A stretch of 63,998 nucleotides of DNA, filler included, from Jimgerdemannia flammicorona (Eukaryota): NCBI GenBank assembly GCA_003990765.1. It is 3 parts of 3 records of this genome, joined end to end, with 100 filler letters (N's around TTAATTAATTAA, not from the genome) between each part and the next. Parts side by side here need not be neighbours in the genome. Positions count along the whole stretch, not along the records: positions 43,133 to 63,998 come from RBNJ01001577.1; 2 more parts are not named here. The stretch is one strand, 5' to 3'. The position numbers and the translations under genes are program-made. The notes below the pieces were generated by a model, which did no database searches, was not told where the DNA came from, and saw nothing but the letters and a program-made list of their open reading frames with translations. Of the stretch, positions 16,296 through 61,738 are shown piece after piece. How positions within the stretch are numbered: position 1 is the first letter of the stretch; each line of letters starts with the position of its first letter.

Positions 16296-16371
16296 ATATA
16301 TATTATCTGCTACTCTGAATAATATTAGATAAGGAAATCATCTCTGATATATATAAAAAAAAAAAAAAAAA

Positions 16372-16414
<43 letters not shown>

Positions 16415-17079
16415 ATATAAGAGAAATAAATATATTATTACGCATTTTTGAGAGTTTGAATAAATACTTTAAAGATAAAGTAATTTATTCAAGAGGAAGT
16501 TTTAATGTATTTCAAATTAAGAATAATTAAGAAAATAGATATTTGATTATAGTATCTAAATTTAATTTCCAAATTTTATATAGTATTATAGTTAGTAGTT
16601 ACTCAATTTTATAGATATAGAATTCTATAATTGTAAAAATCTTATACTTATGAGAAACTTACAATTATAAAAATCTTACAACTATAAGATAACTTATAAT
16701 AGCTATTATATAGTTAGCAAACTTATATAAATATTCTCAATATTTAGAGTGAATAAATCTTAGATTAAAATAGTTTAAAGTAAAGAACTAATAAGTTAAT
16801 AAGTAGATATACTTCAATCTCACTCTTATTAAAAACTCTGAGAAGTTAAGAAAATTAAGAGAATAAGATAAAGAAATCTATCATATTTCTCAAATTAAGT
16901 ATCTACTATATTATACTATATAGATTTCAGTTTAGTTAATAATATATCTAAGATAAATTCTTAATTTCTTTAATATAATTTAAGTTACTTGAAGATTTTC
17001 TCAATATATTATAGATATTTTTAATAGTTTTATTAAAAATGATAATATTATCTATATCTCTTAGTTTATTATAATAGTG

Positions 17080-19956: not shown

Positions 19957-21420
19957 TGTAAGAGGGTTACTTGTAAGAATAACTATTATATAGTTCTGAA
20001 AGGGTTTTCTGGAAGTTCTGGATATTCTGAAAGATCATTTTCTTAAGGTCAAGATCAATTTCATATGGAGTATGTCATCTATACTTATTGATTTTAAGAT
20101 TGGGTTAATGTCTCAATCAAAGTCCTTTTTTGGACTAGTTCTGGATGTTTAGGATTTTCTGTATTTCAGGAAATTTAAGAAACTAAGACCAGCTTAGCTG
20201 AATCAGTATATCACTGCAGACAATACCTAATTAGGAAATTTTATGACAGAGTTAGGAGTGGGACCTAATGGGAAGTAGATTTACTTAAGAGTGGTTTGTG
20301 GATTATTAAATAGATTTATTTGCTATTCATGATATTGCTATACTAGAAGTAGTTGTGTGAAGAGATATTGTGGAGAAGTGCTCAGGAGTTGTGTTCAGAT
20401 TGTTCAAGTCTGTTCAAGTCTGAGATTCTGAGGTCTAGGAGAGAGGGTATTTATACTAATAAGGAGCTATCTGGACTATACTGAATATGGATGTAGTACT
20501 TAGTGCTTTGCTGAGTCAGAATATAGTTATATCACATGAGGCTAATCTAACTATACTAATGACTGCTAAGCTATCTATAAATTTAGATACTGTCTGGATA
20601 GTCTTTGATGATATCACTATCAATGATATTATCTTTGATAAAGTAGTCATCTAGGAAGAGTGGTTCACAGATTATCTCTTCCTGTTTACTAAGATAATAA
20701 TACATATATTGGGACTTTATTACTGTCTCATAGGATAGCATCATCTGTCTCATATGCTAGATATGAAGTTGGTAGGTGAAGGAGGAGTATATCATCTTTC
20801 CTTTCATTGGATTTGCTGTCTGTATACCTTCTATAAGTTATGGTACTATGAGTTGCAGAGTTGTAGTATGCTGATGGTTATGCTTCATATTATTTATACT
20901 TAGGTAGTGGGGTTGTTGGTTTGATCTCAAAGGTTGTCTGGAGATACAGATTATTTCTCCAGTCTCTTCATTATAGTTAAAGTAATTGGAGGTAAATGTG
21001 GACTAGTATTCATACCAGTAGTCATTATCTCAATAGGTCTCATAAGTGGTTATGAACTGTTGTAAGTTCATCAGTAAGGCTAACAGAGTGATCAGGGTTG
21101 GCAGAGATCCTTGGCTTGAGGTCATATTTGTGTCAGAGGGATCATTATCTTCTGCTTCATCATTGTCAAACCAGATTATATCATAGATATCCTTCATGGC
21201 ATATCCAATTTAGGGTATTTACAGAATGTGATCATTAGGGTACAGGAAGGTTCTATCTGTGGTTTGAATATACTTGATATACTTATGGTTGAGTTCTTAT
21301 ATTATATCATCAATTTGGTTATAGAATAGAGTTGCAACTATTTTGGCAATAGTAACTCAGAGGTGGAGAATAAAGGAGCTATACTTGTAGAAGAGTTCTT
21401 GGTATTTGTGGGCAATGAGT
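19957..21420 (-). repeat. LTR of Gypsy family B inserted into the older element, truncated by the gap
   Basis: Starts TGTAAGAGGGTTAC and is colinear with 37105-39176. Confidence 0.9.
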
Positions 21421-21421
21421 T

Positions 21422-21466
<45 letters not shown>

Positions 21467-21570: not shown

Positions 21571-23731
21571 TTTGCGCAAAACGACCCAGAATTGGACGCG
21601 CCAATCGTATGGATGTAAGGTCTCATACCTTCACTCAATTGTCTTGTGTTTGCATACTATCTAGTTTTGCCTTTGAAACCCAAGAGCGACGAAGTGCCAG
21701 CAGAGGAACCCGCCCAGAGAGATGAAGCTGTCGCGTTGGTCGCCGTCCGGTGCATGTGCGACCTGTTAACGAGCGTGACGCACTTCAACTTTCGCACCAA
21801 CTTGATGACCGCTATCGTGTCACGGATGAGCACAGTGAAGTGGACTGAGGTAACTACATCTCTTGTCGCACGTAATATAAATCGTAATCTCCTCGCCCGA
21901 TGAACAACATAACTATGCTTCAACCTCCACCCCAGATGTTACCCCTCTGCTGCGACGCGATCATCGACGTCTTTCAGAACGATGAGTCTGGTGAGGCTTC
22001 GCTAGATGCGGTGAAGGTGTTGACACGAATGGTCAAGTCCAAAGGGTACATCGTGAACGAGGCCGCTCTGAACACGCTACTGCACCTTCGGTTAAGGGAG
22101 GAATTGGTGCCACGGTCAAAGGCGGAAGCGGAGGCCAAGCAAGCCAGGAACCTGAAGCGGAAGAGGCAGGAGCAACATAGGTCGCGGAAGCAGCGAAAGA
22201 TAGATAGTGAGAGGAAGGAGGTTGAGAAGGAGCTAAAGGAGGCGGAGGCTATGGTGAATAAGGAGGAAAAGGAGAAAATGGTGGGTTCTTTCTCTTTTTT
22301 TGGGGGACGGGGGAAGGAACGGAAAGCGAGTGTACGGTGTCTGGACACATGGCTTCAGCCAGTTCAATCCGTTATTTGGCCGCCTAACAATGCGTCAATT
22401 CATTAATATATTGTCACAGCAAACAGAAACCTTGAAACTCGTATTTGCGACGTACTTCCGAATCCTAAAACATCAGAAAACTTCTCCTCTACTTCCCGCC
22501 GTGTTGGAAGGCCTAGCCAAGTACGCCATTCAGACTTGTCGGAATGACATATATCATTAATCTTATAATGAGCGATAATCTCACAAGGCTCTTGTTCCAT
22601 TTGTAGGTTCACGCATCTGATCAACGTGGATTTCTTTGAAGACCTGTTGGAGGTTCTAAAAAAAATAATGATGTCACATGCCAACGATTCGTTAGAGCAA
22701 GACGACGTCTCGCTATTCAAGTTCGATACCCGTCGGAGTCTTTTGTGCATCATCACCGCGTTCAAATTGCTCTCTGGACAAGGTAAACATCTCCCCTTTA
22801 AAGATTGGTAATTCTCAGATACTTCACTAAAAAAAAATCACGTACTCCATGCCACGAACCACAGGCGAGGCATTCAACATTGATCTTAAAGATTTTTATA
22901 CGGAGATGTACTCCATCCTACTCCCGCTCTCGTACAACACCCGGCTCGAGGACATGTCACAGCGGAGTCTGCATGACGAAGCGCTGCCAGCGAAGGTCGA
23001 ATCAAAACACAAACAGGCACACACTGCAACCGAGGAGGAGTTGATGTTGATGGGATTGGAACTGCTGTTTTTCAACCGGCGGCAGGTACGTCTGGTTGTC
23101 AGTTGCGAGAAGGATTGGAATCATTGTAGGTCGCTAATACCCTTTTTTTTGGAACAGAATCAGATCCCCAAGGATCGGGCGGCGGCATTTGTCAAACGTC
23201 TTGCGTTGACATCACTGAATATGCCCAGCAAGACCGTCGTTGCATTGCTAAACTATATCAGAAAGCTGCTAATGGTATGGATATGTGTCTTAGAATTGCG
23301 TTTGTGTTCTTGTTTGTATTTTATGCTGTTTTTTCTTGCGGGCATAACACGCCATTGTACTGGGCGTGAGTTAAATGCAGATTAAGCATCGATTATGACG
23401 TTCGGACATCCATCTAATTATATGCTCCCTGTTTGGATCTCAGAGACAACCCCTTCTTGACGCTCTCCTGTCATCGGAAGACAAAGCGGGCAATGGGGTG
23501 TACCTGTCGGTTTTGGATGACCCTGAACTCTGCAATCCTTTCGCAACAAGCTTGTGGGAGCTGCAATTATTACAGGTACGACGAAACTGCGATTACACGT
23601 TATTTTCTGGCAGCAGATTGCCTCTCATCGAATCACTTCCATTCCTACAGATTCACTATGATCCCAAGGTACGCGGGCTGGCGAAAAGCCTTTCCAAGTT
23701 TGAGCCAGTGGGGAAGGTAGTTGGGGCATAG
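21571..23731 (+). CDS. NOC3: Nucleolar complex-associated protein 3 (CBF/Mak21 domain), 5' part lost in the gap
   Basis: Motifs [92 protein letters not shown] and HYDPKVR. Approximate exons 21665-21849, 21935-22280, 22420-22520, 22607-22782, 22865-23085, 23164-23273, 23443-23575 and 23651-23731. Confidence 0.93.
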
Positions 23732-32100: not shown

Positions 32101-33113
32101 CAACTATTATTGTCTTAGCTGAACAGACTCGACCTACAAAAAATCTAAGCCTACCTACCTTCAATGGTACTGCACAAGAAGTCCAAAGCTTCATTAGTGT
32201 AGTTGACACCAACTTCGAAGCCAATCAATGGACTAATGAGTAAGTTGCTGACTGCATTCTGACAAACAATCAAGGCCACACTCTGGAATAACTCTTTACT
32301 ATCACTATAGCCTATGTCCACCAAGTTGTTACATTCTTCTGAGTACCCGCCAAGGAATAGTGGCGAACCCTTTCTGAAAAACCCCTCACATGGGACACCC
32401 GACCTACAGTAGTTACTCAGAATACAGCAAACAATATCTCAGGATATAGAGCCCACCCTGCAGCCTCTGGACTCAAACAACTCATGATTGCTCAATATTG
32501 CAGCAAAACCATGATTGCCGAATCTTGAGTAAAACTCCACAACCTCAAATTTGATATATATGGCAAAGAAGAATTTGAAACCTTCTATACAAAACTTGAG
32601 TCACTCCTGAACACTATTGGTCTAAGATATATTGCCAATGATGAAGTACAAAATAGTACAAAAGCAGACCATTTATTCAATGTACTGTCTGAATAGCTTA
32701 CTAGAAAAATCTGAGAACAAGGCTGCCCAGTTGGTTACAATCACCAATAATGGTGCCTGGCAAGAATCAAGACTATGGTCAAGCAAATCCTAACAGCTGG
32801 ACCAATGCTGCCCCAAAGACAATTTAACAATAAGGAAAAGACTTGAACCAAGAAAGAAGAACCCAAGCATAAAGTATCCCAAGCTCCCTCCACATCCACC
32901 TCTTGGACACTCAGAAATCACGAACCCACCCAGCTGAGTACCTTGAAGAAACTGACTGAAGGAGAAAGGAATGAACTTTGAATAAGCAGAGTATGCTTCT
33001 ATTGCTGAAAGACAGGACACATGGCCAGTACCTGTCCTAACTGAAAACCCCGAACAGTAATATGAGCAACAGTTACCACTCTGCACCACCTAAACAACCT
33101 GACTACCAGAATA

Positions 33114-33530
33114 CTAGACTTTGTCAAGTTAAGACAAACTGCCAAGGCCCCAATCAAAGGAAGTCAAAAAGCAGCCAGATATGACCTGTATGTAGCCGAA
33201 GAAGCTACAGTTTCCAACCAAGAAGTCAAGCAAGTCTACACAGGAATCAGTATCCAAATTCCTGAAGGACATGTCAGAAGAATATGCTGTCACAGCAGCC
33301 TAGCACTGAAAGAACTCTCAGTAGAAGGAGGAGTTATTGATAAAGATTACACAGGCAAAATCATTGTTCTGATCCAAAACCATAGTTGGACACCCTTCAA
33401 GATTCCCATTGGTTTCTGCATTGCCCAGATTCTATTCGAAAAAATCGAGTCAACTCTGACAGTCAAGGAAGTCCCTGAACTACTGCCCACTATCTGAGGA
33501 TCCAAAGGATTTAGCTCATCAAACAAGGCC
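33114..33530 (+). pseudogene. dUTPase domain of the LTR retrotransposon
   Basis: AARYDL (motif 1), HSSLA (motif 2), EGGVIDKDYTGKI (motif 3), IAQILF (motif 4) and *GSKGFSSS (motif 5; CGA changed to TGA). Confidence 0.9.
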
Positions 33531-43132: not shown

Positions 43133-43241
43133 TGGAGAAGAAAAAAAAAAGAGGGGTGACAAAAGGGGGATAAGTAAAGGGAGAATAACTGTTTAGATTT
43201 TAGAGGGTAGAAAGTTGTTTATAAAGGTTAGAGTACAAGAG

Positions 43242-43276
<35 letters not shown>

Positions 43277-43278
<2 letters not shown>

Positions 43279-44232
43279 ATATACTTTTAAGTATATATCT
43301 AAAATCCCAACATATATATAAGACTATATCTGAGTTAAATAGTATAGCTCCTACTGTCTTAAGAAGAGTAACAGGTAAATAAAAAACTCTTCTTAAAGTA
43401 TAGAACAGTAGATAGGACCTAGTTCTTCCTGATGAGATAAGTAGAGAACTTATATATAAGGTAAAAAGAGACTCCCAATATTCCACTACTTAAGTCTGCA
43501 GATCTTGATTATATTACTATATCAGTTTTTAGTTCCAGTTAAGTATAGCTAAGATGTCTGATCTAGGTAGCCTTAGGCCCTCTAACTACTCTTAATGACT
43601 AGGACCCAATCTCACAAATTGCTAAAAGCAGTCAAGAGTAATACCTATTATCTAATTACTCTATACCAATCAGAAGGTCCTACCAATGTAATATCTATCT
43701 CTATTCCAATAATTACCCCCAGCCTGGCACTCTACTAATCTATTATAATTGTCCTTTCTCTTATCTATAATAGCTATCTCCTCTCTTATCCCAACTCTAT
43801 CTAAAAAGCAGTCACCTATACCAGAACTATACTTGCCAGAAAGCTCACCAAAGCTCAGAGGGCTCCACCACAGATACTGAAGATCTATAGGTAATCTATA
43901 CTAATACTTGATACCCAAGATTGGCCAACACTATATGTAATTTATAATATATCAGATGATATTTTGTTAATAATAACAAAAGAAAGAAGATATTATACTA
44001 AAATAAATATACTCCAGATATAACTGAAGATATCAGAAACTGCAAAAAAGTATAGAAGATACTGATTGGATACTAATAAAGGAATAACTCATTACCATTA
44101 TCTCTCTCTCACTATGTTCTTATATATAAATATAGCAAATCAATCTAAAGTAGAAGAGGTAATAATAGAAGAAAGAAAACTTAAAAGATTGCCTACCAAA
44201 TCTTATAACCAGTAAGATAGCAGAGAAAGAAG
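43277..44232 (-). mobile_element. Heavily decayed copy of the 1.18-kb retroposon
   Basis: Colinear with 51990-52925 with many C-to-T and G-to-A changes. Confidence 0.85.
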
Positions 44233-44792
44233 TACTTAAGATAATATCTATATAAATTGTTTAATACAAATTTATAAAAAAAAATTATATTATAATAATA
44301 TTTTTATAAAAGATAAGAAATTTCTGTAAAAATTAATAGTAGTTATATAGTAATTGTATAATTCACTAATATATATATATATATAATCTAGTTATATATA
44401 TCTTTATATTGTAATATCTTTATAAGTTTATTATTGGAAAAAATCTATAGAATTTAGTAAAAATACATATAAATAATATATAACTAAAGTTTAAAAGGTT
44501 GAAATATACTGATTTCTAATTATAACTATAGGATTTTTTTTTAAGTAATAATTTATAATATAAAATAATAATTTAAAAAACTTAAGATTATTAAGTTTAA
44601 TATAACTAATTAGTAATATAATTTAAGCTTAAGAGACTTAATATATATATTATATTAAGCTTATTATTAATAATTTAAATATATACTAGCTATATATATA
44701 TTGAGTTTACTAAAGTATACTTGCTAAGCTTATTAACTTATCAATATATACTATATATACTGAGCTTACTAATATATATATATATATATTAC

Positions 44793-44825
<33 letters not shown>

Positions 44826-45689
44826 TTTAAAAAAAATAAAATAAAATTAGGTCCTAGTAGATTTTTATTAGAAGAGAATCTACACTATATAAGTCAAAAC
44901 TCTCTCACCCTCTTCTCTAAATACTACTCTCTTATTATTCTTAGACTATAATGAGAACTAGTAGTTATACTATTTTAGCTATATAAGAGTAGTATTATAT
45001 ATCTCTATCTCAACAATATATAGATCAGACTTATCTATTCATCAGGACTAAATTATCAGACCAATACTGTTGTAAATATATTGAAAATATAGAGTAAAAA
45101 GAAGAGTAGTAATATTATTTATTGATTGTTTATATTTTTATATATTGAGTAATATAACTTAAAGATAATATAGTTATATATAAGTCACATTATTGAGATA
45201 TATAATAATGAGAATTTCAATACTCTTACTCAATGAGATAATATGTAAGAATATAATATATGTAGAAATATAATATAACTAAGTAATAACTACAAAATAA
45301 CTCTAAATATACTAAAAGAATACTATCTATATATACTTAAAGTATAAGAAATTATAGTGAAAATAAAGAATATAGATAGATCTCAGTAATAGAAATCTCA
45401 AATAGAAGAAGAAGAAGAAAAAAAAAAACTGATAAATAACTATAATATAATACTTGAAGAGAGAGGAATATTGAAAGATATAATATATTATTTTTCTATT
45501 TTCTTTTTATTATAAAATATCTTATAATTATCTATTACTGATATATAGTTTTATTGCTAATATAGTTTACCATAAGACTTATTTCTTTAGTATATTACTT
45601 AAATTTAGATCCTAAAAGAGCTTTAGTAAGATAATCTGTAATTATATATTCTATAAAAATGTATAGTTTCATTTTATATATATTCTCTA

Positions 45690-48715: not shown

Positions 48716-51700
48716 GCTGTGACTAGGGATCTGGAAAAAAATCCAAATATGATGGTAGTTAGTGGTTCAGGACAGAGGGTGGGCATGAGGCCCAGAGACC
48801 TGGCTGATAGTATGATGGGCATAGTATTGATACTATTACTCAAGAAATCAAGGTTGGAATTCACCATCACATTGTATTTCTGGGGCTTGGTAGTGACTAT
48901 GAGGATGATCTTAGGACTGGTGGTACAAGAGGTGAAGAGAGCAGCATTGGTGAAGTTCTTGAAGGAGAAAGAAGAGGTTGAGATTGGGTTTGAGGAAGAG
49001 GTATCATTGTTGGGAGCTATGGAGAAGAGGGTAATAGTGGGCAGAGTGGTGGTCTCTATGGCCAGATACATGCACTGGATCCCCCAAGTGGTGCAGTTGA
49101 TGGTATTTGATCTTCCTACAGTATTGAGGGAGAGGGCCAGGGAGTTGATTGTGAAGGCGGTCAAGGAGTATAGAAAGATTGTGGATATCAGGTTTAGAGT
49201 CTGAGAGAATACTAAGCTCTGGACTGGTGATATCAACATCCAGGTGAGGCTGGCTAGAAAGGAGAACATGGGGAAGGCAAGGGATTAGCTAGTGACTCTT
49301 AAGTAGGAACTGGTAGAGTGCAAGGTCTTGTAGATGAAGAGGATACCAGAAGAGGAGAAGGATTTGCTAGAGGCTCTTGAAGATCTGATAGAAGTAGTTG
49401 AGAGGAAGAGATTGACTTAGAAGGAGTATGAAGCCAGGATAGTGGTGGAAATGGTCAATAGAAAGAGGATCAGGATAGACTGGGTGATCTGGGAGAAGAT
49501 GCAGGGGAGGCAAATCCAGAAGGAGCTGCTGGAGAGGTTGGGAGGCAGTGGAGCAGACAGTGGTACAGGAGAAAGTGGCACAGGATTGCAAGAGAGTACC
49601 TGGGCTGGGGAGCACAGGATGGCCCAAGGTTGAGCCCAGGGTGGAATGAGTGAGGAGAGACAGAGTGATATAGAGGCAGATATAGAAATGAGTAAGGGAG
49701 TATACTCTCAGTATGATGTCCTGGGTGGAGCAGAGGGTGAGGAGGAACTACTGGATGTACCAGAGGAGAAGTGGGATGAGTCAGTGAGGAGGAGTGCTTT
49801 GGTGGACCCAGAGGTGGGGGTTGAAAGGATCACCCAAGGTGTTGCAGAGGCAGTGGACAAGGAGAAGTAGTTGTGGAAGACTCTGGAAGGGGTGGCAGTG
49901 GAGGAGCTAGGGAGAGAGAACTTCCAGATTATGAGTAATAGGCATTGGGAGGAAATTCTTCATGATGAGGAGATACTGAGAAAGGTTAGGAATGAGATTC
50001 TGATGGTACTCTTGGAATCAGTTGAATATCAAGTAGATGATCAGAGGGAGGAGGAACTTCAAGTGATTGCAAATAACTGGGCAGCATACTTGTGGTATTT
50101 GAGAAAGAGGTTGGAGAAGTGGAGAGTAGTCTGCATGGATTATTAAACAGAAATGGAAGTTGTGAATGGGGTGGAGTATCAAGAAATCTTAGAGACATTG
50201 GATGCTCAGGTAGTAGTGAAAGGTGATCTGAAAGCAGAGCAGTGCTTGAATCTGGCTGAGAATGAGATGAGCATAGAATACTAGTCTGGGCTCTCAATAT
50301 CAAACATTATTCAATATGAATAGTATAATTAGAATCTTATCTTTGAACATGAATGGGTTGTGGAGTATAGTGCAGTAAAGGTATATATTTGATTGGCTCA
50401 AAGAACTGGATGCAGATTTTTTCTTACTGTAGGATATATATTATGAGGCAGATGTGGACTTATAGGATTAGACTAGAGAATGAGGGGGGGCAGCAGTGTG
50501 GTATGAGTAGGTGGGTATTCTAATCAGAAAGGGGATGGGGGAAATTAGTGATATTGGACATTGGGGAAGTAGATTGATGTAAAGAGTGTGGAAGAGGCCT
50601 GGATGGAGCCCTCTGACTGTTGGGTCATATTATTGTCCAGCAGAGAGGGGGGAATAGATAGATTGGATCAGAAATTTGAAAGAAGCCAGTGTTATAGATA
50701 AGGCAGGGATTGACTGCCTGGGAGGTGATTTCAACATAATATAGAATAATATGATAGACTGATGAGGGGAGAGGGATGAGGGGCAGAAGTGGTGGATTGG
50801 ATGATTAGATAGAGATAGAGAGATTGAGTTCTTTGGTTGACTTGGAGAGATAGTTTTGGGAGGATCATAGAATTTATACTCACTGGGCAGTAGGGCTGGG
50901 CTCTAGGATTGACTGTATATTGATAGCAGAGTACTGGGGAGTAGATATCTGGGCCATACTGGAGGTAGTTTGGTGCCTATGGTCAGATTACCGAGGTCTG
51001 ATAGGGAGGGGGAGGCTTGGGAGAATTGGGGATGGGCCTGGACATTGGTGACTGAATTCTTCTTTGTTGGAGGATAGTTCTTTATGGATAGACTGAGAGG
51101 TAGAGGTTATTGGGAAGATTGGTAGGTAGTGGGAGGAGAGACTGATAATTGGAGATTGCTGGCAGAGGCTAAAATTGAGTTCTCAGAGGTATTGGAGAGA
51201 GGCAGGGAAAGGAAGGAGTACTCAGTGGTGGCAGAGAGTGCAATGGGCTTTGTAGTGATTAGTGATGCTCCTGGGGAGATGGGCAGGGGCACTAGTGGAT
51301 TGGGAGGCAGCTGACTAGCATATTCTGCAGATTCAAAAGGAAGTAGATGAGCTTAAGGAAGTGATATGAATGGAGAAAGGGGGTTAAGTTGAAGGGGATA
51401 GTGGTACAGCTATAGTAATAAGAGTTGGAAGAGGGAGAGAGACCCACTAGGTTTTTATTTGGTTGCTCCAAGTACAAAGAGCAAAACAGTAGTGGGATAG
51501 TATCTTGGATAAGAATGGGGAGATGGTGGTGGGGACTCCTGTAATTCTGAAATTGCTGAGAATACACTGGGGGAACTTATGGAGTGAGGAAGGAGAGAGA
51601 AGTGACTATAAAAAAAAAAAAAAAAAAAAAAAAAGAAGAAGGAAGTGAGGATGCTCTGAATATTGAACATCATTTGGAGAATTGGCATCCAGACCCTCCT

Positions 51701-52929: not shown

Positions 52930-55264
52930 GGAGAGGAAGTTTGCAAGATCTTGGCTGCAACAAGTAAGGGGACTGCTCTGTGAGAGGATGAATTGCCCTG
53001 GGATTTTTGGAAGAGGATGGCTGGAGTAGTAGTGGTTCTGGAGAAAATAGTAGTGATGAATAATGAGATACTTCAATCTGGAGCTTGGATTGGGGCCCAG
53101 TACCTATGGCTGGTCTCTTTGTTTTGTAAGGATAAGGGGAGAAGAGAAGATTGAAAGAACTAGTAATTGATCATACTTCTTGACATAGACCATAAGCTGG
53201 TGACAAAGATCTTAGTGACTAGGCTGTAGGGGATTGCTCAGCAGATACTAGGAGTGAAATAGAGAGGATTTGTTAGTGGCCAGTTGATCTGTCTGGGTCC
53301 ATGGGGTAATTGAAGGGACTAGGGCTACTGGGGTAGATAGTCAGTTAGTATTTCTAGATCAGAAGAAGGTGTATGACAGGGTGAGGAGAGTCTGACTGGA
53401 GAGAGTGTTGAAATGAGTGGGAGTTCCCTCTGAGTTCAGGAGGGTGTTAATTGGCCTATTGGAAGACAGTCAAGCAGTGCTGATGGTGAATGGGCACAGG
53501 GATGTGACTTTTTCGCTAAGATATAGGGTACCACAAGGGGATCCTTTGTCATCCATCCTTTATACCCTTTCTCTAGAGCCTCTGTTGGACAGAATCTAGT
53601 ATTGAATTGGGGGTTTGGATTTTTTGGGGATTAACTAGAAGGTGGGAGCATTCACTGATGACATAGTAGTTAGACTGGGTTTATTGGCAAATGTAGAGGA
53701 ACTGAGGAAGACAGTGGAATAGTATGAGAGAGGCTTGGGTGCTTGGCTCAATTGGCACAAGTGTGAGACTCTGGTGTTAGGCAATGGTATAATTGGTAGA
53801 GATGTGATTGGAACAGTGATTCTAGTAGGAGAACTGGTCTGATACTTGGGGATATACTTTTCAGTATATGGGTCCCTTCTATCCTATAGATAGTGGAAAG
53901 GCAGTTACTTATATGGAAGAATATTCTCCTATAGTGGGGTAGTTGGCATATATCTCTAGTAGGAAGAGTAATGGTACTAAACATATACTGGCTACCAAAG
54001 TTATGATATGTGAGGTACCATCTGGACTTTCCAGCATAGGTGGTCTGGTAACTTCTGAGGATAGCACAATCATAGATCTGGACTGAATGGCAAAGTCAGA
54101 TAGGCTGAGAGGTTCTCACTCTATCTGTGGAAAGAGGTGGACTGAGTTTGGTGGATTTTACCAAGCACCTTTGTTGCCTGTGAGTGTGGTGGTTAAAGAG
54201 AGTAAGTGAGTTGAGGGGTCTGGATTGGGTACTGCTTATACAGAGGTTGTGGAAAGTCTGGTATTTCCCTCATAGAGTATCAGGTGATCTGCTAGCAATG
54301 GTTGCCATGGATGGAAGTAGGAGGATATGTTATAAGGGCTTTTGGTGGGGAGTGGTGGATGGTATAAGAAATATAGGGCTTTGGTGGCAGAGTGAGGAGG
54401 GAGAGGAGGACTGGGGACTACAGATATGGTGATGGTACCAGCTATTGCTGGGAGGTACATTGGTGGAGAACTTTCAGCTTGATGATGGTATAGAATACCT
54501 GTGAGGGCTAGGGGGGGACTTGTAGCCTGAAGCATAGCAATAGATGGAGATTAATGAGGAGTGAGACTGGAATAGTATCTGGTCTTAGAGCAAGCAGGTG
54601 ATGAAGTGGCTTCCCCCCAAGTTCTGAGTGGTCTGGTGGAGGTTCTTAAGATAGAATGTGATACTTAACTATCAGTCAGGACACTTGGTGGCTGACAGTA
54701 TATTTGAATGTGAGGATTGTATAGATATTGATCAGGAGAAGAGTATGGTACAAATGTCTGAATATTGGCTAGGGGAGTGTAAAGTCTTGGGGGAGTTTTG
54801 GCATAGTATTGCAAGTAGGTTGGGTTGTGATCATTGATGGAGAGAGAAGGAGAGAGATGGAGGGACCTCTGACATAGGTTGTTGAGTGGGGTTGGAGATG
54901 AATAGCTAACTATGGAGTAGACTCATAGAGATGGCCAGTCATTAGCTTTATGTCTTTGAGGAGGGCCAGCAGATCAGGGTTAGGGCTAGGGTAGTACATT
55001 GGGAATGGCTATTACTTGATGTTTTGAATAGTTGGTAGTGAGGGTGTAGACTAAGTAGAGAAAGTCATTAGAAATTGGTGGATTGTATTTGTGGTAAGAG
55101 TGGAGATAAGGTCAGAGTGGTGAGTGGCTGGATTATCCTTTGGCAAGGGGAGGGGAAGAGGAGGGGTACTTATGTATTATTCAATATAGATAGAGTGGTA
55201 ATAAATAGCAGTCCAAGTAACTATAAAAAAACAAAAAAAAAAAAAAAAGAGATCTTGTAATTAT

Positions 55265-57100
55265 TTTCACTCTCTTCTCTAGGGTCTTTTTAAATATTAT
55301 TAGCCTCAGTTATATCTTTTAACTTTGATTCTTGACTATCTCAATAAGTCCAAATCTTATTTATTATCTAAATATAGAGATTTATATTAGTTAGTCAAAG
55401 GTTGTATTGACTTTTTATTAGCTGAGATCTTTGAAGATATCATATTTAGAAGTCTTGGTCTTATAAAGCTTCTTCTCCTTTTCTCTCTCACTAGCTATAG
55501 TAGTTTCTCTAATAATATCTTCAATTGCTTGCTCAAGCTCTATATCTTAGTCTATTTATTTAGTAGCAATTTTACTCTCTATAGTTGATTTAATTTCCTT
55601 TTCTATTAAATTATTCTTAGGCCTTTCCAGTAATCTCTTATAGGGCTCTTTGTGGATATCTTTCTTAGTAGTCTAAGTAGGGTAGACTTTCTATTCTTCT
55701 TCATTAGACTCTCTAATTTCTTCAAAAGTGATAATATTAGTCTGTTCTTTATTTTAAATAGTATTGCTTAACTGGATCTTATACTTAGTTTTATTTATAT
55801 ATTTATAAGAGTAGTGGTCTTTCTCTCTACAGCTATAATAGGTATCTCTCTTCTTACAACAAACTTCTGAACTGGGTGATAATCTCTCTCTCTGATTTCC
55901 TTTACTACATCTTCTAGATGAGTGATTATTTTAATAAACTTCTTGGTAAGTTCTCTATAATATCACTGTATTTCTATTATTCTGTAGTTTTTGGCTATAG
56001 TGTATTTTGATTAACTATTATAGTAAAGATTATACTAGTTATCTTAGATACTTCAATTCTAACTCTAATGACTCTTTCTATTATATAGTCTTATAGATAT
56101 ATATCTGACTATTCAGTATTGCTAAGCATAGATAATCTTCTATAATAGATCCAGAATTATTGATAATAAATAGATGATCATAACTATCTCCAGATAGATT
56201 TCTTTCATAAAGATTACTTTAGCTACTTAGTCTCAGATAGTATTAGTATAATTAGTAAGATTTATCTAATATTGGATTCTAATATAGAATATATTTAGAT
56301 CTTTACTCATTTCTTGATATATTATATTGAGCTAATTATTTAGGGCTTGCTTGATCTTATCTGTATAATATATAGTTTGGAGCCAGGTCTTTTATATTAT
56401 TAGTATACATAGTATTATTATCTGCTCTTATATAGTTTATATTTGTGAATACTGCTCTTACTGAGTCTTAGAGACTGAAGAGTATGAGAGCTACTTACTG
56501 TCTGACTATTAGGGTTCTTATGACAATATATTACTCAAAAGTATCAATAAAGATAATGATTGATTTATCTGAAGTATATCTATGAAATACTAATGGTCTT
56601 ATATCTATCTTATCTAGATGTTTTGGTTTAATTTATATAGTTCTTTAGATAGTAGTTATTCATTATTTAGCTTAAAAGTGAGAAATTCATCTTAAATCAC
56701 CAGTTAATAGATATCAAGTTGTAATATAGTGGATACTTAACCTCAGAAGTATAATGAATATCTATATCTTAAAACTTGATTTTGTTCTGACTTTTGAAGA
56801 GTTCTCAGTATATGTAGTAGTGAGAGTTTGAAGTATATATATCTGCCTACAGGCTTACTAGTTCTCTTGCTTTCTCTTTGCTTTAGAACTATTTCAAATT
56901 AAGATTCATTTACTCTAGATACTGGGATATTTATTTAAGTTTACTAGCTATATATAAAATGGCTAAGTTATGACTATATTCCTATAAGTTACTTTTTATA
57001 AGTGTCAAATCTTTTGACATCTATCAGGATTTCAGTGATTGCAAAGATTTCAACATCTGCAATTGTTAAAGTTTCTCTATTACTGAAATGACTGCTATTT
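55265..57100. mobile_element. AT-rich decayed repeat, probably the continuation of the element split by the LINE
   Basis: Lies beyond the LINE TSD, is CpG-free and TpA-rich. No confident domain call. Confidence 0.45.
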
Positions 57101-60040
57101 GTAAGGCTATACTATATTTGGGAATCAGATCCAGATACCACAATCAGATCAACCGTCACAATAACCAGATGACTTCATGGTGATGGGACGAGCAGGACAT
57201 CATTATCGGAATTGAGATCTCACCAACGAGACATCGAAGACGATTATAGAGCGACGACGATAACGATTATAGAACGATTAAGATAATGACCTAGAAGACG
57301 AAGACGCGATGACGTCACGATTTTGACTTCCCCTTGGCCTCTCAGAGCACTACGCCACTACCTCTCGACGTCACCACTATAGTAAGGATTATTTGTCTTT
57401 TGGATCCTGTCCACAACCGCCGTACCCCGTCCTCTTCATTTAACGGGTGCAATGCTCTCGTCTGCCACCCTTTGGTCGTGTTGCGTTAACCCTTCATGTC
57501 CGGTCCGCCACTGACACATGGCATCGGGATGGTTCACGTTATATTCTTTCTTCGCGTCCACCCATTCTTATCTCGCGCCTGTACGCTGCATTCAGTCATT
57601 TTGGTCAATTTACGCTGCCACGACCTCGTATGAACGGAGCCATTATTGGCGCCGCCGTTCCTGCCATCCGCGTAGCCGGTAGCAGGTCCGGCTCAGGTGA
57701 TCAATCTTGGGGAATCCGTGGACGAGGCGCGGATCCGGGGAACGAGGATGAGTGGGAAGCCCGTGGGGCTGGAACCCAAGACGTTTGTTTCATTGACAAG
57801 TGAAGAGATTGGCGGCGGTTGTTGGGTTTGGAAAATTTAATTGCTACTCATATTCCTCTTTGCAGGATTAGGGGAAAGTGAAGACGGCTTTCGCGAAGTC
57901 CTGCAGGTTCAGCAGACGGGGTGTGATAATCAATACATCAGCGTCGTCAACTCTTACGGCCGCCAAGCCGGGCCTGTTGAAACCGGTTGTCGAGATGAAA
58001 GTTATCCTACTTACTACGTAACACAGTAACTAATTTTTTTGCATTCGTGATTATGATGCTTTTGTCTATCATTTAAAACATGCGTCGTTTTCTTGGGAAT
58101 GTGGAGTACTGCATGTACAGCAACGTTGCTCTTCGTATTCTTCTATTACCTTTTCTATTTTGTATTCCGTTCGATTTGGCGGTCCTAATCTTATCTATTT
58201 ATGCGCCCAATGGGCAAAATACCTTCAGGTTTCCAACTGAAAGCTCCCAACTCCGAATCCATACGTATTTTCATCAAATTCGAGTGCTGAAACTTCCATC
58301 GACGTCATCAACGCCCGGAGCCTTTGAAAAGCGCCCTTAGCGGTCGCTTAAATAGAATTTCTTGAGGAATCCGGCGGATTCATGAGAATTGAAGGTGAGC
58401 ATCGTTGCAGATTGACTTAGTTGCGTAGGAATAGTAGTCTGAAGCGAAATGGATTAATTTTCGGCATGCACAACGGGCGGCTCGCTCTGGTTTAGATGTA
58501 AAGCATCGCAAATTTATGTGTATGTGTGTAGAGCCTGTTGCGTCATGATATCTGCACGGACGAGACGAAGGATATAATGCTTTTTCTGTGGTAGTCGTGT
58601 AAAATCTCCTCCTTTTCGTCCTTGCGGATATGCCTACGCACAATGTTTTATTTTTCCTACCCTGGGAGATTTTCAGATTTCGGTACTAATCAATATCGAA
58701 CTTTCTGATCTATTTCCAACGTTCGATTATCTGGCCAAGCATGTTATTGCATTGGAAACCTTGCGCATTTCGGGCGCCGATCACATTCGCCTGCAGGGTG
58801 GCTTAGAATGGCAAACGTTTTTCATGCATTTTTGTACACACATTGATGTAGGTAGGACCGGCTGAGTATCGAAATCGTGAGATTACATGTTCATCTCCAG
58901 GTCGAAAGAAACATTTTGATTGTTTAAAAATTTTATTTATGAATGAGGATTACTGCTAAAATTCGTAATGGACGTCGCGAGAACGGCTCGGGCGACGAGG
59001 GTGGTGGCGAAGCGCATGATCAGGATGACGTGTGAGGGTTGGTTGGGTGGCGAACTGTACTTTTTATACGCCCATGGAAACCTGTTTTACATTGTACAGG
59101 TACAGGAGTTAGAATATTTTAATCGAATCGTTTTCACAACCAGCGGTACAACCCTTCATTACAAGAAAGGTTCAAGCTTCGGAGCATCTGTAAATGAGTA
59201 GTGTAATCCGAAGTGCGAATGTCTGGTCCATCAACAAGCAGAGTTTCGATTGAGTCCGTAACAACCTTCATCCAAAGAGCGCCATTGTGCGAAACGAACT
59301 CCATGCAGGCAAATTTTAAATGGTCTCACTACCACTAACCAGTATAAAAGTCGAGGAAAATACGGCATTCCGCCTCCGCAGTGAACATCTCCGCTAAGCG
59401 GTTGTGGGCTCCACCCACGTCGGCATATTCGGTCACGGCAGAAAATCAAGCGGCGCACGGGGTTCTTATTTTCGCGCTCGCCTGAGGGAACTGGGCCCGT
59501 CAAATGCACATGTAGCCATCATCCGCACGGAATGCCTCGTGTTTCAAGAGTGCACAATGCATATATCTCTACACCTGTTGGCATTGCTTGGGCTTTAATT
59601 CTACTCAATACACACAAATTGAACTTGGAACGTCCATTTATGCGCCTATTCTTTGATTGTGGGGCTTTCGCAATCGTCTGAACCACTTCGTTCCTTCCGG
59701 AAATTTTATTTCCCGCCACAAATCCCAGTATTCTCAGAGCATGCAATATTCAATATATCTATATAAGCAGCAATCGGCGTTAATTATCTTGTGAATGTGA
59801 TCGATCCCCCTGTTTCATTTCCGTAATTTGAAATTATTATTTTTTGGCGGTATTTCTTCATGCCCCCCGATCTTGCTGCTCTATTGTACACCTGCGGTCG
59901 TTGTTTTTTATTTTTTTATTTTTTTATTTACTTTTGCCATACTGTGAAAACTTGTCACCCAGGTTTCCGTCATCTTTGGTTGGATTTTGTCTTCGGAATG
60001 TGAAAGTCAGCGGACGTCCCCAGCAATTCTGCATATATAT

Positions 60041-60091
<51 letters not shown>

Positions 60092-60420
60092 AAATGCAGC
60101 GACTTCTGAAACGCAATGACATCATGATGAGTAATTCTTTCTAGAGTCACGGGATATACCCACCGCGCTTCACGTTTTGCTTTCTATTTGTGCTTTTCGA
60201 CGTCCGTTGACAAACCACCACATTTAATCGGAGGGCAGCTCTTTTTCTATCATTTCACAGGCGTAACGGCGTAGCGGCATAGCGGCGTAGTGGTGCGTAT
60301 TACTAACTTACTAACGTTTCTTTCCTCCTTTTCTTTTTCTACAGGACTTCCCTCTTCTCAACGGGTTTAGTGTAGTGCTTCCATCTCTCGGACCGGGTCG
60401 GCGAAGAGCTCCTTGGCGTG

Positions 60421-60500
60421 CTTCTGCTTTTGCTTCTGCCTCTGCTTCTGCCTCTGCTTCTGCCTCTGCTTCTGCTTCTGTTTCTGTTTATGTTTATGTT
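60421..60500. repeat. Degenerate hexamer microsatellite (CTTCTG/CCTCTG/TTTATG)n
   Basis: Direct reading. Confidence 0.9.
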
Positions 60501-60868
60501 TTTTTTATCTTAACCAAAGGTAAAGGATGCATCTAAACTGAACCACCGAGTCAAGAAGGATGAGGCACTATTACCCTATACGGATGAGTTGCGGTGTCCC
60601 TCCAGCTCTGCTAGGTGAGTCAATGAGAGCCCTGAGCCATAAAAGAGAGCGTCACCTCCGTCCCTCACGAAGCCCTTGATCACGTACAAGGGCTGGAGGA
60701 GTCAAGAGGACGAGTGACGAAAGCTGCGGCGTACTCCCCTGGGTAAGTGGAGCCGTCCCAGTTTCCCACCTGTATTTGGTTGGCCAGGAGGAGAGGCTGC
60801 AAGACGTCGGGGCCGGCGTAGGAAGGTGATCTGGATGGGTGGTAGATTAAGGGCTCTATAAGGTACGG

Positions 60869-60927
60869 GGAAGCCGACGCAACCCCACCTCCTCGTGGTG
60901 GCTTCTGGATAACGCTAAGAGGGTCGC
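60869..60927 (+). ncRNA. HDV-like self-cleaving ribozyme (minimal or absent P4)
   Basis: P1 GGAAGCC(60869-75)/GGCUUCU(60900-06) with a G.U first pair. P3 ACC/GGU, L3 UCCUCGU, P1.1 CC/GG(60907-08), J4/2 GCUAA with candidate catalytic C60915, P2 GCAACCC/GGGUCGC. The core resembles antigenomic HDV CCACCUCCUCGCGGU...GCUAAG. Confidence 0.8.
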
Positions 60928-61738
60928 ATATAAACGTTCTCAGCTACACATAGTTGAGCAAAAAACTGCTAACGCTAAGAGGGTTGCACGTAAACGTTCT
61001 ATGTTATATATCGTTGAGTAATAGAGCATGTAAACAGACCGCATAATAAAATCGGCCGACATTATGTCGCCTTCCTGGTCCCAACTGAATAAAAAGGCTT
61101 TTAGCCTAACGCTTATCAACTCGGCGTCCTCGTTGTATGTGGTATTGAATGACTGGAGGACCATGTCCCCAGAGCAAATGAGCTCGCAGGCGACTACTGT
61201 ACCTCCTCTTCCTGCCGCCGAGAGATCACCCTTTGCTATTTACTATGTTTCGCCGTAATTTCCATCACATAATCAAAATATTCAGTCATCCTTCTCCCCA
61301 AGACCTGTGAGTTGCAATAATGCGGAATGAAGAAAATGGTTTTACTTTCAATTTTCGGTCACCGTTGAAAATTTTGCCTTCCACACACATATCGGGAATC
61401 TTCATGGATGATTCGTTGTGACGCCCAGAAAGGTTCGTTTAGAAAACTGTCGCACTGTGCTACGTGGGCTGAGAGAGTTATAGAAAATATAGAAAACGCT
61501 CTCGTGCCAACCTAAAACTTACGCCTGCACCTGCCATCTTACTCTTAATCTGTTCGTCAACGCTCTAGACAAGTGGAGACCACTTCCACAAGGTGGAATT
61601 CGCAAAATATTGCCATAGCCCGTCCATCATTTCTATAAGTAACACTTAGGAGGGCTAAATCATTAGCAAGTATGTACATTTGGCAAAATGACTGAGTGGA
61701 AATTTACATGATGCGTTGATCATTATAACACATCCATA

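Follow-up and report, generated by a model that had tools for sequence, protein, structure and literature searches.

A genuine minimal (P4-less) HDV-like ribozyme of 59 nt, identified by its sequence and structure and predicted to be active, is encoded in the window, by which we mean the whole 63,998-nt stretch of DNA analysed here, from Jimgerdemannia flammicorona (Endogonales, Mucoromycota). By its sequence it is a member of a known ribozyme class in a new host range. The P4-less class is described in the accessible text of PMC10879173 as nearly confined to tailed phages; the locus reported here widens that range to cellular eukaryotes, and the repeat-borne P4-less copies that we found in probably eukaryotic contigs likewise widen it. 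The Rfam HDV models miss the P4-less class because they demand P4. In the literature we found no HDV-like ribozyme in Mucoromycota and no P4-less one in fungi (the supplementary lists of PMC5640933 and PMC10879173 could hold cases).

The letters that the first-pass annotation had read for this element on the + strand agree exactly with the window sequence, and the parts of the HDV-like double pseudoknot that it had claimed (P1, P3, P1.1, J4/2 and P2) are all found, with P4 reduced to 5 nt (Table 1). It had also placed the cut between 60868 and 60869, and the same site is predicted from the fold. The A.C mismatch in P2, which leaves six out of seven pairs, is absent from that annotation. The first P1 pair, G60869.U60906, is at the predicted cut site, P3 has three out of three pairs (60887–60889 with 60897–60899), and P1.1 consists of two G-C pairs (C60891-G60908 and C60892-G60907). 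The 13-nt P3/L3 motif matches exactly the consensus derived from 64 aligned sequences of the family (see below) and the consensus lines of the Rfam drz-agam-1 and HDV models. In three Rfam HDV-family models the position of C60915 corresponds to the C of GCuAA, and the J4/2 region aligns to GCUAAGA of HDV-F-prausnitzii.

Table 1. Coordinates of the candidate ribozyme, its parts and the features around it, in window positions
Feature	Positions	Strand	Remarks
Minimal (P4-less) HDV-like ribozyme, 59 nt	60869..60927	+	R1 model positions 1-58 of 58; predicted cut 5' of G60869
P1 5' strand GGAAGCC	60869..60875	+	7/7 pairs with 60900-60906
J1/2 GAC	60876..60878	+	3 nt
P2 5' strand GCAACCC	60879..60885	+	6/7 with 60921-27; 7/7 with 60981-87
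Unpaired C between P2 and P3	60886	+	same build in L028, L030 and six metagenome types
P3 (ACC/GGT) around 7-nt L3 (TCCTCGT)	60887..60899	+	exact 13-nt motif
P1 3' strand GGCTTCT	60900..60906	+	nested MFE gives P1 and P3
P1.1 3' strand GG	60907..60908	+	read from sequence; demanded by structural descriptor
L4 ATAAC in place of P4	60909..60913	+	5 nt; family consensus RTAAY
G then J4/2 CTAAGA	60914..60920	+	putative catalytic C = C60915 (C of GCTAA, nt 47)
P2 3' strand GGGTCGC	60921..60927	+	A.C mismatch at 60881/60925
Tandem duplication, 81% identical	60910..61021 (60910-60961 + 60970-61021)	+	begins in L4
Second P2 3' strand GGGTTGC	60981..60987	+	7/7 with 60879-85, -12.1 kcal/mol; helix in centroid
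Possible 52-nt intron	60293..60344	+	GTGCGT, TACTAAC twice, pyrimidine tract, CAG; read from sequence
Single-copy, CpG-intact island	57150..61732	.	bounded by CpG-free repeats

From this fold and from the family described below, we consider it probable that 60869–60927 is a competent HDV-type ribozyme, with C60915 as the general acid and a cut 5' of G60869. The calculated energy of the P2 duplex is -7.9 kcal/mol; the P2 helices of 11 viral members have a median of -6.1, and the candidate P2 is predicted to be no less stable than theirs. The nested folding energy of the ribozyme is no better than that of shuffled sequences (z +0.87); it is unremarkable because a double pseudoknot is not scorable by nested-folding programs. 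Three points stand against activity: the mismatch in P2, the base at -1 of the predicted cut, which is G, and a predicted competition by the leader. Among the four bases, G at -1 is the one least suited to HDV ribozymes. When a 60-nt leader is added, the nested MFE structure pairs 60809–60828 with 60885–60905 (P3, L3 and the 3' strand of P1), and the stability of this leader–ribozyme pairing is no better than that of shuffles (z +1.18). The leader segment 60809–60828 is a possible attenuator-like competitor of the ribozyme core.

The 25-base core of the candidate is the core of more than 60 natural P4-less ribozymes from viral, metagenome and prokaryote contigs. These were collected with a core pattern of 32 nt (ACC, L3, GGT, 7 N, GG, 3–12 N and GCTAA), in which 25 bases are fixed and the P1 strand and L4 are free. 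The pattern occurs at 37 loci in viral contigs; 17 out of 19 distinct viral rows have a P1 of 7/7 pairs and a P2 of 5–9 bp, the exceptions being L019, which fails, and L024, which is cut off by the contig end. For the scans of prokaryote genomes and metagenome contigs L4 was fixed to RTAAY, and the pattern was found at three loci in 185,579 prokaryote species genomes and at 66 loci in metagenome contigs. Together the prokaryote and metagenome loci gave 70 matches, 49 of them distinct, and in 38 out of the 49 P1 is paired 7/7 and P2 contains no more than one mismatch. A P2-specific pattern had 0 matches in the metagenome scan.

Three details of the candidate that are not all in the search pattern, namely the ATAAC L4, the CTAAGA junction and the unpaired base before P3, nevertheless recur in nature. 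The same L4 letters are found in L006, L010, L040, L062/L065, L070, L095 and L103; CTAAGA is found at equal spacing in L028, L030, L054, L060, L061, L082, L092, L097 and L105; and one unpaired base precedes P3 also in L028, L030, L054, L060, L082, L092 and L097. In the family alignment (64 matches, 63 distinct) all seven P1 pairs vary on both sides, and 99.0% of the P1 cells are paired, as against 33–57% when the partner is slid by 1–3 columns, in an alignment that was fitted to the covariance model, which favours the structure. G.U is the first P1 pair in 43 out of the 63 distinct sequences. The ribozyme starts 0–4 nt after a tRNA in 10 out of 55 loci scanned (CUA-anticodon tRNAs are among them), and this is the setting published for theta ribozymes, as the accessible text of PMC10879173 gives it.

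Some of these loci have arrangements of their own. The three prokaryote loci (L038, L039 and L040) are in Bacillota or Mollicutes-type MAGs (Bacilli, Erysipelotrichaceae and Anaeroplasmatales), and each of their ribozyme copies is directly 3' of a tRNA. L070 is an array in which a few hundred bases hold three minimal ribozymes (42–98, 179–235 and 363–419), L057 (985–1041 and 1215–1271) and L040 (292–348 and 752–808) contain pairs, and in L070 and L040 the ribozymes alternate with tRNA genes. Two IMG/VR contigs labelled as giant-virus MAGs have two model matches each (L006 at 1–59 and 285–341; L019 at 301–332 and 568–624). L019 also holds two tRNAs, and the ribozyme of L006 is unchanged in L062 and L065. 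The ORF lists of these GVMAG-labelled loci gave no informative context. A blastn comparison of the single-copy island around the candidate (Table 1) with the 106 fetched loci found likeness inside the ribozyme alone (the best was to L100, 80% over 60 nt). No match to the 59 nt was found by blastn among 50,697 phage records at E up to 1, a null result that says little because a 59-nt query is too short.

Covariance models bear out the HDV-like assignment of the first-pass annotation: the Rfam HDV models align end to end, at sub-threshold scores, and R1, a model that we built from six viral P4-less ribozymes (seed alignment A2), matches with an E-value of 2.2e-10. At gathering thresholds Rfam has no match in the window. 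In E-value mode three models match at the ribozyme, HDV_ribozyme (RF00094) with 24.1 bits against a gathering score of 50, HDV-F-prausnitzii (RF02682) with 21.9 against 44 and drz-agam-1 (RF01787) with 21.4 against 37 (E 0.055–0.2 on 401 nt); the full model is covered and the P4 block alone is deleted. The scores stay below threshold because P4, which those models demand, is missing. Nothing beyond these three matches was found in E-value mode over 57000–61800 at E up to 5. A structural descriptor has one site in the window, the candidate; it was composed after the candidate was seen and is therefore biased. Among 181 dinucleotide shuffles, one gave a descriptor match with C at the catalytic position, and nine matches were obtained with any letter there. 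On the Rfam and descriptor tests alone, a chance match within a large scan could not be dismissed.

Under R1 the candidate scores 47.4 bits over the whole model length, and the next match in the window has an E-value of 1.1. Non-seed viral members that match the core pattern mostly score 42–53 bits (L016 scores 32.3), and family members overall 25–76 bits. The R1 E-value partly restates the identity of the core, because the seeds were fetched by the candidate's own core. Independent of the choice of seeds, the core belongs, by its sequence, to a real, covarying and partly tRNA-linked family, and the window adds P1, P2 and L4.

The candidate can be compared with four known systems. Its sequence and structure place it among the minimal HDV-like ribozymes (drz-Mtgn type; Riccitelli et al. 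2014 as cited in PMC10879173), taken here together with the theta ribozymes of gut Caudoviricetes, which sit at tRNAs (Kienbeck et al. 2024, PMC10879173). According to the accessible text of PMC10879173, Caudoviricetes account for nearly 99% of such sequences, and none of the human, mouse and protist genomes searched there has a listed theta hit. As far as that text describes them, the candidate shares with these ribozymes a nested double pseudoknot that lacks the P4 domain, the P3/L3 letters, the GG of P1.1, a 5-nt RTAAY L4, the GCTAA junction with the catalytic C, a P1 of 6–7 bp opening with G.U and a P2 of 5–9 bp. It also scores as a member under R1, with seeds chosen via its own core. Unlike theta ribozymes, it is found in fungal nuclear DNA instead of a phage, with no tRNA upstream; further differences are its GC-rich helices and its tandemly duplicated 3' half.

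The CPEB3 ribozyme, which all mammals have in common, carries a P4 and lies in a known intron within a pol II transcript. Like it, the candidate is HDV-like and is found in non-repeat DNA of its host (as a single copy within the window); unlike it, the candidate has no P4. Variant HDV ribozymes of fungi have been reported from 26 species, and their association with genes varies or is unclear (Li and Breaker 2017, PMC5640933). In the accessible text of PMC5640933 these variants have C-G as the pair next to the cut, an E-loop in place of part of P4, and an extra nucleotide between P2 and P3 that is most often C. The candidate resembles the variants described there in its fungal host and in the extra C before P3 (C60886), but differs from them in its G.U first pair and in having neither P4 nor E-loop.

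The 4.6-kb island that holds the ribozyme has been called unique and CpG-intact, and within the window it is: 57000–61732 has no other copy except for poly-T, there is one ribozyme copy in the 64 kb, and CpG o/e is 0.84–1.37 across the island as against 0.00 in the flanking repeats (55000–57150 and 61733–63998). The island contains 259 CpGs, five of them inside the ribozyme. The CpG decay reported for nearby TEs is equally evident, every recognisable repeat in the window being without most or all of its CpG. The flanking repeats have a GC content of 0.28–0.35 with no TpG/CpA excess, and the change at either edge of the island is abrupt. Elsewhere the window carries pieces of Ty3/chromovirus elements (protease, RT, RNase H, integrase and chromodomain) and a CBF/Mak21 gene at 21754–23728 (+), which is seen as six tblastn blocks with at least four introns. 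A 184-aa ORF of this gene has 100% identity with a protein of Jimgerdemannia flammicorona (74% of the ORF is covered).

No ORF of the island is above 119 aa, and a scan of 24 ORFs gave no Pfam domain at E up to 0.01. The ORFs at 61034–61255 (+) and 60943–61239 (-) have no relatives among 5.8 billion proteins, including those of its own species. Coding on the opposite strand was considered and rejected: an 87-aa ORF over the ribozyme has one match in 1.84 billion representatives, to a repeat protein from bacteria whose score adds up 10 repeats of ~22 bits each, and we judged this match to be chance. ARAGORN found 0 tRNAs in the window. The upstream segment 60740–60868 folds no better than shuffles (z +0.22), and Rfam shows no RNA family in 57000–61800 besides the three HDV matches. 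A putative intron is found 525 nt upstream of the ribozyme (Table 1), and its signals resemble those of four CBF/Mak21 introns, which are longer (about 70–170 nt). It is a hint, read from the sequence, of + strand transcription towards the ribozyme.

The unit of the tandem duplication (Table 1) comprises L4, J4/2, the 3' strand of P2 and ~34 nt beyond. The two copies have 1/18 differences in the ribozyme part and 9/34 in the next stretch, a contrast that is not significant (P roughly 0.1). The 3' strand of P2 in the second copy would pair fully with the 5' strand, so that a long form with a 65-nt insert in the place of P4 is possible, and it would cut at the same site as the short form. During transcription the short form would be completed first and the long form later. 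A true P4 in the long form was considered and rejected: the insert gives a 3-bp stem and a separate 8-bp hairpin, which do not adjoin the core.

We do not regard the candidate as heading an intact mobile element. Tentatively, and at somewhat less than an even chance, we favour an element that stands alone and processes, in cis, a + strand transcript that is non-coding or untranslated. A transcript through the locus would fold as it is made, forming P1 and P3 and then, once 60921–60927 emerges, P1.1 and P2, and its self-cleavage between 60868 and 60869 would use C60915 as the general acid and a bound Mg2+. The upstream RNA would then end in a 2',3'-cyclic phosphate, and the downstream RNA would begin at G60869 with a 5'-OH; the cut would set the 3' end of the transcript, or destabilise and terminate it. 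That the host might maintain the ribozyme to define the 3' end of an upstream RNA had been suggested in the first-pass annotation. The analysis shows the fold, the family membership by sequence and structure and the genomic setting, whereas catalysis, transcription of the locus and a use by the host are inferences. If transcribed and active, the locus would be a simple test case for the effect of a stand-alone ribozyme on a fungal pol II transcript.

A bolder version, which we regard as speculative and rather improbable, is that an early-diverging fungus has retained, in single-copy DNA, a P4-less HDV ribozyme of the phage type as an element of its own. This element would cut a non-coding + strand transcript, making a non-polyadenylated 3' end or stopping transcription, and the duplicated 3' half would provide for a fast short fold and a stable long fold (with the 7/7 P2). 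If this were true, a cellular eukaryote would for the first time be seen to use a ribozyme of the minimal class, and RNA 3' ends made by a ribozyme would extend beyond viruses and phage tRNAs.

The stand-alone reading has to be weighed against one in which the ribozyme is the 5' head of a non-LTR retroelement, present as a dead or short non-autonomous copy, which we consider unlikely but to be taken seriously. The ribozyme would once have freed the RNA of the element from upstream read-through transcripts, and the coding part would have been lost, lie beyond the repeat inserted at 61733 or never have been present. Unlike the candidate, published retroelement HDV-like ribozymes are not known to lack a P4. 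HDV-like ribozymes are found at the 5' ends of R2, RTE and L1Tc non-LTR retrotransposons, and such heads (R2 and L1Tc) are the commonest eukaryotic setting of HDV-like ribozymes, going by the accessible text of PMC3185411 and PMC3414825. With these the candidate has in common the HDV-type fold, a eukaryotic genome and a predicted cut at its own 5' edge. Tandem repeats adjoin it on the 3' side, and tandem repeats are common in retroelement 5' UTRs.

A further point in favour comes from the metagenome contigs, in which ten loci of one dispersed family start a shared repeat with the same P4-less core (L052, L059, L067, L069, L071, L078, L079, L080, L091 and L106). The core is at about 1001–1032 of each locus (153–184 in L059), and from the ribozyme onward the copies have 150–370 nt in common at 89–97% identity, with upstream flanks that differ. 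The copies start variously in P1, J1/2 or P2, with (GT)n or (CT)n runs at the junction; L067 is the sole copy with a 7/7 P1, and L069 contains a weak RVT_1 fragment (E 8.7e-4). The contigs are long and probably eukaryotic, and the repeats are likely, from their sequences, to be a retroelement family that is headed by a minimal ribozyme and has 5'-truncated copies. A P4-less ribozyme as the head of a retroelement is therefore realistic, and like retrotransposon heads the P4-less core starts a repeat family in these loci. If the candidate were such a head, the biology would be ordinary, in a smaller ribozyme format.

Around the candidate itself, however, the marks of a retroelement are missing. 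It had been claimed that no RT ORF follows, and we found none in 23 ORFs of at least 60 aa in 57841–62892, nor an EN or gag domain in the local ORFs; the view on the 3' side is short, with just 805 nt of non-repeat DNA visible before the inserted repeat, which makes up 2.27 kb of the 3.07 kb to the end of the window. The two downstream ORFs without relatives (see above), the lack of a second copy in 64 kb and the lack of a TSD or poly(A) end also speak against this origin (the search for a target-site duplication gave one 8-mer alone, with ~0.4 expected by chance). CpG is normal on both sides of the ribozyme, whereas the repeats of the window are CpG-depleted, and P1 is complete, in contrast to most truncated copies of the metagenome repeats. 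The normal CpG content and the single copy (within the window) weaken the retroelement alternative.

The ribozyme could also be a relic, ribozyme-shaped and perhaps able to cut, but untranscribed or unselected and drifting neutrally; this we think distinctly unlikely. It could stem from one acquisition from a virus, phage or endobacterium, or be the leftover of an extinct element. Consistent with this, the nearest look-alikes are viral, and the three exact cores with an RTAAY L4 among the 185,579 prokaryote species genomes are all in Bacillota or Mollicutes-type MAGs; no gene, RNA family or conserved structure is recognisable nearby, and the adjacent 60-nt duplication has diverged by 19–27%, pointing to neutral change next door. 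Against an acquired relic, there is no likeness to any fetched viral or metagenome locus beyond the 59 nt, and the island, with 119 aa as its longest ORF, does not have a phage-like coding density. All core positions and the five CpGs of the ribozyme are intact amid neighbouring substitutions, although this contrast is weak (P roughly 0.1). An origin from an ambivirus or viroid-like agent was rejected, as hammerhead and hairpin ribozymes are reported in the ambivirus paper to be the most frequent motifs, and HDV enters there by comparison only.

A chance look-alike with neither ribozyme ancestry nor activity is very improbable: every Rfam gathering score is missed, the nested folding energy is unremarkable and the loose descriptor, met by one out of 181 shuffled windows, is not rare across a scan of many windows, but the missing P4 explains the low Rfam scores, nested energy is blind to a double pseudoknot, and the candidate has the 25 core positions of a covarying natural family, the 7/7 P1, the 6/7 P2, the L4 of that family and the low E-value under R1.

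Long poly-T/poly-A tracts of 24–100 nt are found at 1651–1757, 16355–16435, 21419–21466, 43236–43283, 44772–44832, 51610–51640, 55225–55248 and 60042–60090 of the window; one of them, T49, is 780 nt upstream of the ribozyme. An ORF at 33066–33494 (+), amid the Ty3-type pieces, has a clear dUTPase domain (E 4e-26) and may be borne by an LTR element. A second J. flammicorona protein is 82% identical to the CBF/Mak21 ORF, pointing to a paralogous or duplicated region, where another copy of the ribozyme locus may lie.
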